DNA of 64,000 nt from a virus. Its lineage: Duplodnaviria; Heunggongvirae; Uroviricota; Caudoviricetes. Of the stretch, positions 15,314 to 16,105 are shown piece after piece. Every line of letters begins with the position of its first letter. The stretch's first letter is position 1. The translations under genes and the position numbers were made by a program. Below the pieces are notes generated by a model. That model worked only from the letters and a program-made list of their open reading frames with translations, was not told where the DNA came from and ran no database searches. The stretch lies in IMG/VR virus record IMGVR_UViG_2700989507_000006; one strand, given 5' to 3'.

Positions 15314-16105
15314 GCTTAGCCGCATTCACCGCAACGGAAAGAGCATTCTTGGTGGACCTGTAGATTGGGATATGAACCCGTTACAGGAGAATGCTCTTAC
15401 CTGTTACGTGCTCCGTTTCGTGGAGCTAACGGCGGGTGATCGGGCCGCACCAGACTGGACTTATTTCAGCGTTATGCTCATGCCAGAGAATCAAACTGTG
15501 ATGGTCGGTGCTGAACTCCGACACAGGGTTGTAGCAAGCCCCGCAAAGCGCGCACTACTGTAGTTGCGGCACATCAGCCTGTGCATTCACCACAATGTTG
15601 AGAACACTGGTTGTCACGCTGCAACGCAACATTTATTCGTAGATTGGGATATGACCCCGTTACGCCAGTATTCTCAACGTTGTAGTGCCGGTTACGGTTC
15701 CGGCCAGGCCTCTTCCTCAACGGGGTGTTCTCCATACGGACTACCGTTTATTGGTCGTTCCTGCGGTTTATGTTGTGAAGCCAGATGCTTATCTTCTGGT
15801 TGCTTCAAAGAGCTGCACTTCATCACAACGGTAAGAGCACTCGATGCATTTAAGCCAAGCCCCATAAGGGAGAATGCCCTTACCTGTTGTGTTGTGATGA
15901 CCGGTGCTGATCTCCGGCTTGCGGTTATTTCAGACTCTCACGGGCGTTTAATTGCCCCGCCGAACAGCTCTTTTCCGCAATAGCTGCAATGTCTTTCGCG
16001 CATCAGCCTGCGCATTCATCACAACGGTAAGGGTACTTCGTAGGGATTCGAACCCTCTGCCAAGCTCGGCGATCTCCGACGTCGCAAAATACCCTTACCT
16101 GTTGT
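15314..16105. repeat. array of four long imperfect hairpin units sharing sequence blocks
   Basis: Units at ~15339-15398, 15593-15682, 15821-15900, 16021-16105; shared blocks gtagattgggatatga(a/c)cccgttac (x2), catcagcctg(t/c)gcattca(c/t)c (x2), cccttacctgtt(a/g)(c/t)g (x4 incl. one at 16532); no minus-strand ORF of 60 aa or more across 15325-16019. Confidence 0.5.
16026..16099 (-). other. tRNA-sized (74-nt) palindromic tRNA-like element, probably degenerate
   Basis: 10-bp closing stem ggtaagggta/tacccttacc, internal GGTTCGAATCC T-loop-like box, D-loop-like GG, but no 7-nt anticodon loop and no CCA. Confidence 0.3.

Follow-up and report, generated by a model that had tools for sequence, protein, structure and literature searches.

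The stretch of DNA described here (64,000 nt, referred to as the window) comes from a P1-type phage-plasmid and was 98-99% identical in sequence comparison to phage JL22, RCS47 and phage P1. On its minus strand, within the C1-controlled ban operon, the features follow in the order Pban/operator, dicF-like leader with its terminator, hairpin E, tRNA-Asn, tRNA-Thr, an array of RNA elements, tciA, tciB, tciC, tRNA(CAU), and ban. The array fills the gap between tRNA-Thr and tciA. From 5' to 3', it is composed of hairpin D, module 1, hairpin C, a spacer with a possible mini-module, hairpin B, module 2, an 86-nt spacer, hairpin A, and module 3, which is followed by tciA (Table 1). The elements are non-coding, structured, strand-specific, conserved among phages, and linked to tRNA clusters. 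Two distinct predicted RNA families, long bulged hairpins and cloverleaf modules, are interleaved in the array, and both are phage-wide rather than P1-specific.

A first-pass annotation of the region had described four hairpin units built from shared sequence blocks, and had read them as structured RNA modules. The observation is real and this interpretation is essentially right: covariation over hundreds of unrelated phages is seen both in the arms of the hairpins and in the helix that closes the cloverleaf. Two of the blocks were located in two copies each, as described (gtagattgggatatgaMcccgttac at 15360-15384 and 15639-15663; catcagcctgYgcattcaYc at 15572-15591 and 16001-16020). Of the four copies claimed for cccttacctgttRYg, those at 15877, 16092, and 16531 were found, whereas the one at 15393 is looser. 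The copy at 16531, given as lying near 16532 upstream of tRNA-Asn, is also the 5' arm of a fifth hairpin, E. All four units fold on the minus strand, but the stems are 17-24 bp including a 1-nt bulge, not 11-18 bp, and the apical inserts measure 29-54 nt where loops of 35-55 nt had been stated. The units are not one repeat family. The catcagcctg block is a component of the cloverleaf RNA, which is distinct from the hairpins. The gap itself is real, with a length of 928 nt instead of about 0.8 kb. It is not literally free of minus-strand open reading frames (ORFs), as had been claimed: mechanical ORFs of 53, 57, and 118 aa are present, and none of them is annotated in the relatives read (P1, JL22, P7, and D6).

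Bulged hairpins of the array and of other phages

The hairpins share a geometry that can be written as CAYAAC, bulged A, GG, 1x1 mismatch, AAGRGCA ... UGCYCUU ... CC, GUUGUG. The bulged A after the sixth pair is conserved, and the 1x1 mismatch lies three positions further in. The members in the window have the layout by which the long-hairpin family is defined, that is, a CAYAAC/GUUGUG base, the bulge, 2 bp, the mismatch, at least 7 bp, and a variable insert. Folding of each unit had been proposed as a check, and in comparison with 200 dinucleotide shuffles per unit no shuffle folded as well as A, B, C, or D. The plus-strand versions of D, C, B, and A were weaker (z-scores of -4.6, -2.2, -3.6, and -2.5, respectively).

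A hairpin-only covariance model (R2, 20 sequences; a run with the filters off gave lower, truncated scores and was not used) gave 42-47 bits for C, D, and A in the sense orientation and 17-19 bits in the antisense orientation, and nothing else in the 64-kb window. Models from other phages likewise found the units only at this region, all on the minus strand. Hairpin B scored 38 bits with R1 when its tail was included, and the R2 scores for B in P7, D6, and Ro157 were 29.5-34.8 bits. Hairpin E is a weak member of the family, without the tail motif; its R2 score was 15.2 bits and its strand is ambiguous.

The conserved block GRTGAATGCRCAGGCTGATGYGC, called the tail, was used to scan IMG/VR, which gave at least 120 loci. 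Among the matches listed, 113 loci are distinct, and at 65 of them a helix of at least 13 bp stands directly before the tail; of 126 positions drawn at random from the same contigs, 23 have one (p 3e-10). For a helix of at least 17 bp, the counts are 50 of 113 and 5 of 126. The arms of many members are unrelated in sequence and still complementary. In 50 arm-plus-tail constructs, 18 of 19 stem pairs showed double changes, and this covariation was matched by none of 500 shuffles.

Hairpin C is the nearest in sequence to the lambda late-leader hairpin (44,784-44,863), which itself scored 47.9 bits with R2. In addition, the segment 15889-16031 is approximately 98% identical to lambdoid and Stx2 phages (IME207, mEp460, and Stx2 phages; megablast), where the counterpart lies on the transcribed strand of the untranslated pL leader, a stretch bounded by the cI-like repressor and by the first leftward gene. 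An apparent 11-nt match of the hairpin 5' arm (CAGGUAAGGGU) to E. coli RNase P RNA was treated as chance.

The apical inserts show some likeness to tRNA arms. Hairpin D carries a D-arm-like hairpin (GCGA CGUCGGAGA UCGC) next to a canonical T-arm-like hairpin (AGGG UUCGAAU CCCU) that agrees with the strict pattern, and A and B carry degenerate versions. Strict T-arm hairpins (G-YUCRANN-C, at least 4 bp) were found in 6 of 64 distinct apical inserts, at a density of 1.55 per kb compared with 0.059 in the surrounding contigs, real tRNAs included (Poisson p 1.5e-8). This enrichment fits the part of the first-pass description in which the units were called decayed tRNA-derived elements. The tRNA model does not: with RF00005 at 29 bits or more, or with ARAGORN, only the three real tRNAs were detected, and nothing matched at E 10 in 15485-16035.

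Helix P1 of each following module begins within the hairpin: it takes as its first six nucleotides GUUGUG, the end of the hairpin 3' arm. In other words, the hairpin and the following module compete for these six nucleotides.

The spacer between C and B might hold a further element at its start. A short helix P1 followed by a small hairpin can be drawn there (Table 1), and this mini-module is put forward as an RNA module with low confidence. At 83-93% identity, the 5' part of the spacer matches siphoviruses (Sasha, PJ16) as well as Salmonella phages of the P22 type. The 57-aa mechanical ORF mentioned above spans the spacer (15692-15865, minus strand), with an inner AUG at GUGAUGAAGUGC; it could represent either a small protein or an RNA module.

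The cloverleaf modules

The tail is the 5' core of an RNA of about 100-140 nt that is separate from the hairpin. Its motif is 5'-GUUGUGGUG AAU [GCGCA GGCUGA UGCGC] variable [CCGG AGAUCAGCA CCGG] Y CACCACAAC-3'. A module was defined by the core GUGAAUGC-RCAGGCUGAUGY-GC, which includes helix P2, by helix P4 at 40-280 nt further on, and by one nucleotide and the 3' strand of helix P1 after it. Modules 1 and 2 hold all of these parts (R1 scores of 41.2 and 38.0 bits), so that the window has two canonical copies, together with one STnc100-like copy, module 3. The same layout was seen in a T1-like Klebsiella phage, an Ackermannviridae phage, an N4-like phage, Pseudomonas phage D3, and mEp460.

Helix P1 was not used in the selection of sequences. 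It has 7-9 bp in 100 of 122 modules, and in 79 constructs 94.7% of the cells are paired, compared with at most 45% when the partner strand is slid. Seven of its nine pairs covary (for example, UA 37 / GC 31 / AU 5, and GC 37 / UA 15 / AU 14 / CG 8). In helix P2, a G-C pair is swapped for A-U (109 versus 10 cases, none mixed). Helix P4 was recognized by the strict pattern in 129 of 231 distinct tails. Module 2 differs from module 1 by compensatory changes in both P2 and P4. A CCA within 5 nt past helix P1 occurs in 43 of 122 modules, where about 6 are expected.

The loop of P2 (L2, GCUGA) is complementary to the loop of P4 (L4, UCAGC). All five pairs can be formed in module 1, and the same five in module 2, where the one difference in L4 falls at loop position 51, which takes no part in the pairing. 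Variants of L2 were scanned for, and L4 was read in each. At 7 of 10 distinct loci with G23A, L4 has C56U, which occurs beside the canonical loop in 6 of 79 (p 2e-5). All 3 cases of U25C have A54G, which occurs in 0 of the 79 (p 1e-5). C24U with G55A and G23U with C56A were single cases, and five L2 variants were uncompensated. The predicted loop-loop contact is supported by compensatory changes at three of the five positions, and the folding of the motif into a four-arm RNA with an elbow-like contact seems well supported on these comparisons.

Several other readings of the motif were tried and rejected. An ORF from the AUG in the tail (MRRLMR...) runs from 6 to more than 100 codons with no shared peptide, and the only nucleotide changes are the G-C to A-U pair swap, which alters two residues. 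A closing helix with the probe GTGGTGAA showed no enrichment; the probe was wrong, and the true helix, GUUGUGGUG/CACCACAAC, is strongly supported. Hammerhead (CUGAUGA/GAAA) and C/D-box kink-turn readings of GUGAUGA...CUGA were discarded, as A9 and GAAA are not conserved and GGUGA is commoner than GAUGA; the only match was a chance one to sR7 (13 bits).

The 22-nt core was found in 117 species-representative genomes with flanks unrelated between them; identity of the core in every copy is a condition of the exact-pattern scan. The genomes belong to Enterobacterales, many Betaproteobacteria (Massilia, Janthinobacterium, Pandoraea, Achromobacter, Acidovorax, and others), further Gammaproteobacteria (Pseudomonas, Halomonas, Dyella), and Alphaproteobacteria, with a few metagenome-assembled genomes of other phyla. 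A 31-mer containing the core is present in 247 phage records, both temperate and virulent, and the exact core recurs in numerous phage families that are unrelated to one another. The association with tRNAs suggested by the first-pass annotation holds beyond the window: where tRNAs lie within 1 kb of the motif, they share its strand in 24 of 25 cases in the viral set and 18 of 21 in the genome set. The motif lies between tRNA-Met and tRNA-Gly-Asn-Thr in Pseudomonas phage D3, and fills the gap from tRNA-Gly to tRNA-Pro in a Massilia genome. No shared downstream protein gene was apparent when the first ORFs of at least 100 aa in 104 genomes were compared by eye, no family search being run; lysozyme-, RecT-, and RdgC-like sequences were among them, and many are spurious. 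In two genomes, the core lies within CRISPR spacers (L160, Halomonas olivaria, approximately 1139-1160, repeat GTTCCCCGCAGGCGCGGGGATGAACCG; L240, repeat CTCTTGGCCGCCTACGCGGCGGTGAAC), which means that hosts target this conserved phage sequence.

In the virulent N4-like phage IME11 (L253 770-2856) and the virulent Ackermannviridae phage UPM 2146 (L252 700-3630), no genes are annotated over 2-3 kb around the motif, and these stretches look like further RNA arrays. Two tRNA-like genes are found 560 nt downstream of the motif in IME11.

The cloverleaf motif is present neither in Rfam 15 nor in the literature searched. No Rfam 15 family matched modules 1 and 2 even at E 10 (551 nt, 15485-16035), and the motif strings gave no match in a full-text literature search. 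It should be mentioned that E. coli K-12 rydB (L254, 1764713-1764780) contains a P4-like hairpin, GCCGG AGAUAAGCG CCGG. The loop GAUAAG of this hairpin is complementary to CUUAUC, which stands close to the 5' end of RydB, and CCCC/GGGG could form a closing helix. The motif may thus have a minimal relative in RydB; the only match is local, at 13.7 bits.

The relatives of phage P1 differ in the number of elements. Reference P1 is without 15836-16007, comprising module 1 and parts of C and D; the deletion lies between two 23-nt direct repeats, and module 1 is missing as a result. P7 and Ro157 are without hairpin D and module 1. D6 and P7 have a tRNA-Ser(UGA) between B and A, and Ro157 and CMS-2020a a tRNA-Tyr between Asn and Thr. 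These are differences of whole cassettes, through recombination between the repeated arms. The apical insert of hairpin A' in D6 (L004 1352-1467) and P7 (L005 1337-1452), AAUUAAGCGAAUGCCGGAAGCAGAACCGGAUCACCAAAUGCG..., is the sequence that follows the hairpin in lambda (L129 1064-1130), which points to cassette exchange by recombination within the arms. Two further readings were considered. A miniature inverted-repeat transposable element with target-site duplication was ruled out by the absence of duplicated flanks in P1. The cores CACAAC/GTTGTG do not fit the RYYYAAC / GTTRRRY consensus of an integron attC-like site, which would also call for extrahelical bases and an integron integrase, and homologous recombination between repeats of 15-23 nt explains the rearrangements.

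Table 1. Positions of the RNA elements and neighbouring features in the window (MFE, minimum free energy; z, z-score against shuffles)
Feature	Position	Strand	Description	Support
Intrinsic terminator	16733..16752	-	closes the dicF-like leader RNA, upstream of the array	terminator scan; P1 annotation 'dicF-like region'
Hairpin E	16458..16551	-	5' arm CACAACAGGUAAGGGCGCUG, 3' arm CAGCGUCCUUUCCUGUUG; upstream of tRNA-Asn	MFE -48.4 kcal/mol, z -5.4
tRNA-Asn (GUU)	16186..16261	-		ARAGORN; Rfam tRNA 74.5 bits
tRNA-Thr (UGU)	16108..16183	-		ARAGORN; Rfam tRNA 72.9 bits
Hairpin D	16020..16106	-		-49.8 kcal/mol, z -5.0; R2 45.0 bits
Module 1	15891..16025	-	cloverleaf; P1 GUUGUGAUGA/UCAUCACAAC, P2 GCGCA[GGCUGA]UGCGC, variable arm, P4 CCGG[AGAUCAGCA]CCGG	four-way junction in MFE fold
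Hairpin C	15824..15891	-		z -4.7; R2 47.2 bits sense, 19.2 antisense
Possible mini-module	15770..15829	-	start of C-B spacer; P1 GUUGUGA/UCACAAC, then hairpin CAGA[AGAUAAGCA]UCUG	read from sequence
Hairpin B	15588..15687	-	23-bp stem; degenerate T-arm-like GGGGUCAUAUCCC in insert	z -5.5
Module 2	15495..15596	-	cloverleaf; P1 AUUGUGGUG/CAUCACAGU, P2 GCACA[GGCUGA]UGUGC, P4 UCGG[AGUUCAGCA]CCGA	four-way junction in MFE fold; row 1 of alignment A2
Hairpin A	15330..15408	-	insert GGGUUCAUAUCCC	z -4.4; R2 42.1 bits
Module 3	15211..15335	-	STnc100-like; closing helix GUUGCGGUG/CACCGCAAC, 5' hairpin, 3' hairpin CCGGG[AGGCA]CCCGG	z -4.0
tciA (TerB-like)	14754..15179	-	first protein-coding gene 3' of the array	ORF list; P1 and JL22 annotation

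Probable processing of an untranslated operon RNA and other explanations

The array is probably the untranslated middle part of the ban operon transcript, in which candidate RNase III hairpins alternate with tRNA-shaped modules. Judging from the annotation of P1 and P7, it would be co-transcribed with the operon. By homology, the hairpins would most likely be RNase III substrates at which the polycistronic precursor is cut between RNA cassettes. Such cuts would free the 3' side of the tRNAs and the small RNAs, and would part them from the tciABC-ban mRNA; hairpin D begins 2 nt past the CCA of tRNA-Thr. A cut in a hairpin would also free GUUGUG for helix P1 of the following module. In analogy with STnc100 and PasD, the cloverleaf modules would probably be released as discrete stable small RNAs.

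RNase III punctuation is the best candidate mechanism for the hairpins, and may be regarded as quite possible rather than probable. RNase III substrates have about two helical turns of double-stranded RNA, often with an internal loop or bulge, and the hairpins, with 17-24 bp and the conserved bulge and mismatch, have this geometry. R2 also matches a hairpin of the K-12 prophage Qin (locus L131, 19171-19258) upstream of dicF, with 31.5 bits and E 1e-6, outside the training set. A 190-nt DicF species has been described as RNase III-dependent (Faubladier et al. 1990; bioRxiv 10.1101/2023.04.14.536235). Counted back from the annotated DicF 3' end, 190 nt leads to 19246, which is within the 3' arm of the Qin hairpin, approximately 13 nt from its base. 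By this length-based mapping the homologous hairpin would hold an RNase III-dependent end, in agreement with the suggestion of processing sites in the first-pass annotation.

Several points weigh against this picture. The placement of the Qin cut rests on the length of the 190-nt fragment, in another prophage than P1, and the argument for P1, which is known here from its sequence, is by homology to Qin and lambda. A CRISPRi screen is reported to class plp and upl, the genes annotated over the array in phage P1, as non-essential, the region being dispensable for P1 plaque formation. The arms in alignment A1 were picked by folding, so that the pair counts are biased, for which the random-position control is a partial remedy. 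Long hairpins are missing from 42% of the tails, many apical inserts and some modules have no hairpin partner, and P4 was not recognizable in 102 of the 231 tails. The folding energies of modules 1 and 2 were no better than those of shuffles (z -1.8 and -1.0). A strand test comparing G.U with A.C was uninformative for helix P1 (31 versus 30) and biased for the hairpins. In the T1-like Klebsiella phage 6991 (L250 1696-1915), the hairpin and cloverleaf are antisense to the flanking annotated genes, in a 524-nt gap where a 117-nt coding sequence is called over the core; this might be either an unannotated antisense or independent transcript or an exception to the co-orientation.

The likeness to tRNA allows a different emphasis, in which the cloverleafs and the T-arm-tipped hairpins act as tRNA mimics in trans (decoys for host tRNA-targeting nucleases or tRNA-binding enzymes, for example) or as 't-element' signals for RNase P, and the hairpins are secondary. 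The elbow-like loop pairing, the sevenfold enrichment of CCA-like tails, the presence of the motif in tRNA slots, and the 26-fold enrichment of strict T-arm hairpins in the apical inserts all agree with such mimicry. The invariance of the core from one bacterial class to another points to a conserved host partner, and CRISPR spacers target the motif. However, no tRNA model match was obtained at E 10, there is no conserved anticodon-like loop, the 9-nt loop of P4 lacks the T-loop consensus, and CCA is present in only about one-third of the modules; to our knowledge, there is no binding partner. Mimicry of this kind is unlikely, and it would be compatible with an untranslated, processed operon RNA. 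A further proposal makes the cloverleaf a new, tRNA-shaped class of functional RNA that has an activity of its own and might bind a conserved host tRNA-handling machine or act as a ribozyme; it is tentative and rather doubtful. If true, candidate partners would be RNase P, a tRNA-targeting defence nuclease, or a modification or CCA-adding enzyme, and the P1 array would be a processing cassette delivering several cloverleaf copies. Small ribozymes typically combine a compact junction, a tertiary contact, invariant nucleotides, an insertion, and a phage RNA-gene setting. The module has such a junction and loop contact, about 35 near-invariant nucleotides, and a variable stem insertion, and lies between RNA genes. 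Self-cleavage of the precursor without host nucleases is nevertheless highly improbable, as no Rfam ribozyme family matched, no candidate cleavage site was identified, and the related STnc100 and PasD are described as Hfq-bound base-pairing small RNAs.

A long untranslated operon needs protection from Rho, and the array could be thought to provide nut- or rrn-like antitermination over 1.7 kb of untranslated RNA. The 3' arm UGCUCUUUCC would correspond to boxA, GUUGUGGUG to boxC, and the small hairpin to boxB. The commonest 3' arm shares UGCUCUUU with boxA, and in P22-type leaders the motif stands after boxA-boxB, the tail being about 35 nt past the canonical pair with the core at the boxC position. 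The boxA-like segment is, however, part of a helix of 17-24 bp, the arms of many members are unrelated, loci with a true nut site carry the motif additionally, and the loop of the small hairpin pairs with L4. Virulent phages of the T1-like, N4-like, and Ackermannviridae groups have the motif too, although no search for an N-like antiterminator was made there or in P1. Set beside a nut site (single-stranded boxA CGCUCUUUA, a boxB hairpin, and a phage N protein that binds it), the array has an 8-mer resembling boxA, though in paired form; an N gene was not searched for, and we know of no N protein in P1. Antitermination is very unlikely. That the array consists of neutral duplications or recombination scars at the DNA level, its conservation reflecting recent horizontal exchange of mosaic joints, would agree with the copy number differing exactly at the repeated arms (P1, P7, and Ro157; the A' insert of D6 and P7). 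It would not account for arms and helix P1 strands that stay complementary through complete sequence turnover, for covariation of the loop-loop pairing, for the exact core among unrelated flanks, or for an orientation that follows the tRNAs, and its probability is slight.

Reference P1 annotates the 928-nt stretch as two plus-strand genes, upl and plp, with ORFs of 109 and 139 aa that are also annotated in RCS47 and JL22, whereas no coding sequence is annotated there in P7 and D6. Across 60 variable sites in the P1 relatives, the counts at codon positions 1/2/3 were 3/9/9 in the upl frame and 8/8/11 in the plp frame, without third-position bias. Indels of 1, 2, and 13 nt lie inside the two ORFs of relatives, gain or loss of a unit swaps the last third of 'Plp', at its C-terminus, and 30 nt of tRNA-Thr fall within plp in reference P1. 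Peptide repeats (DWDMNPLQ / DWDMTPLRQ and ENALTCYV / ENALTCCV) are translated nucleotide repeats. A Pfam search gave no family above threshold for upl or plp, and one match below it (E 0.078). With no coding signature, the two genes appear to be annotation artefacts over an RNA array, as the first-pass annotation had held for the plus-strand ORFs, and Upl and Plp as real proteins are the least credible of the explanations.

Leaving these alternatives, the reading as a processed, untranslated part of the ban transcript can be set against the rest of the operon. The Pban-proximal leader (16733-16960, minus strand) is homologous to the DicF precursor region of Qin and ends in a strong intrinsic terminator. 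To reach the tRNAs, the array, tciABC, and ban, transcription from Pban must therefore pass this terminator; otherwise, it must start beyond it. Further along, the tRNA at 14404-14479 with the anticodon CAU is tRNA-Met according to ARAGORN and tRNA-Ile2 (lysidine type, ileX-like) in the P1 annotation; its identity hinges on a modification that is invisible in the sequence.

Comparison with known systems

The nearest described RNAs to the cloverleaf are STnc100 and PasD, which are sister RNAs. They are prophage leader RNAs reported as discrete, Hfq-bound small RNAs, described as base-pairing. They share with the cloverleaf the closing helix UGGUG/CACCA and AAU, then a hairpin on the 5' side, further hairpins in the middle, and a last hairpin, on the 3' side, that directly adjoins the closing helix. 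However, modules 1 and 2 do not match STnc100 at E 10; the loops (GGCUGA, AGAUCAGCA) and the 22-nt core differ, and the range of the cloverleaf motif extends beyond Enterobacterales into other bacterial classes, unlike that of STnc100/PasD. In the Rfam search proposed for the array, only the real tRNAs matched the tRNA model, and module 3 (15213-15333) gave a match to STnc100 (RF02076; model positions 31-147 of 206) of 37.8 bits and E 5.8e-6, below the gathering threshold of 47. Compared with tRNA, the cloverleaf has four arms, a terminal helix of 7-9 bp, a contact of the D/T-loop type, a frequent CCA, and a place in tRNA clusters on the same strand. It differs by the lack of T- and D-loop consensus sequences, by a variable 'anticodon' arm of 20-200 nt, and by a 3-nt linker between P1 and P2. 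The covarying helix and loop contact, the conserved core, the tRNA slots, and the targeting by CRISPR are its notable traits, and its conservation in temperate and virulent phages means that it probably engages a core host machine.

Qin offers a close parallel in layout. Its hairpin (CCAUAAC-G-CG-A-AAGCGCA ... UGCGCUU-C-CG-GUUGUGG) has the same geometry as those of P1, and in both cases the hairpins lie in an untranslated stretch of a prophage or phage operon, that of Qin upstream of a small RNA. Other parts of the P1 region are Qin-like as well: the Pban-proximal RNA resembles the dicF precursor, and module 3, which lies between hairpin A and tciA, is homologous to the dicF-dicB intergenic RNA. 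The latter (L131 19428-19590) starts with a variant of the tail (UGUGGUGAAUGCGGCUGAGCGCACGCGG) and is STnc100-like. It is enclosed, immediately ahead of the dicB start codon, by a long-range helix of 15 bp (GUGAAUUUUGUGAUG / CAUCACAAAAUUCAU). Qin differs from P1 in having one hairpin and no tRNAs, and cleavage has been shown in Qin.

The P1 Pban leader also has a layout like that of lambda pR'-6S-tR'-hairpin. The lambda hairpin stands directly after the 6S/tR' terminator, so that in both phages a terminated leader RNA precedes, and its arms are near-identical to those of P1 (CACAACAGGUAAGAGCAUUG ... CAGUGCUCUUUCCGUUGUG, aligned as CACAACAGGTAAGAGCATTG...CAGTGCTCTTTCCGTTGTG). The hairpin of lambda is a single copy without the 22-nt core. 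According to its title, Daniels et al. 1988 (Virology 167:568) concerns sites in the late transcript of lambda that RNase III processes. That these sites coincide with the hairpin after tR' is a lead rather than a result.

In T4, the small stable RNAs C and D of the tRNA cluster, whose function is unknown, are co-transcribed and processed with tRNAs. The RNase III sites of the T7 early genes are repeated, sequence-related bulged hairpins that punctuate a polycistronic transcript, and separate mRNAs rather than RNA genes. By the present comparison, the lambda late-leader RNase III sites, the processing of Qin DicF, and the P1 ban/tRNA operon would be joined in one element family. Three classical systems in one hairpin family would suggest a general 'punctuation' system for untranslated RNA operons of phages.

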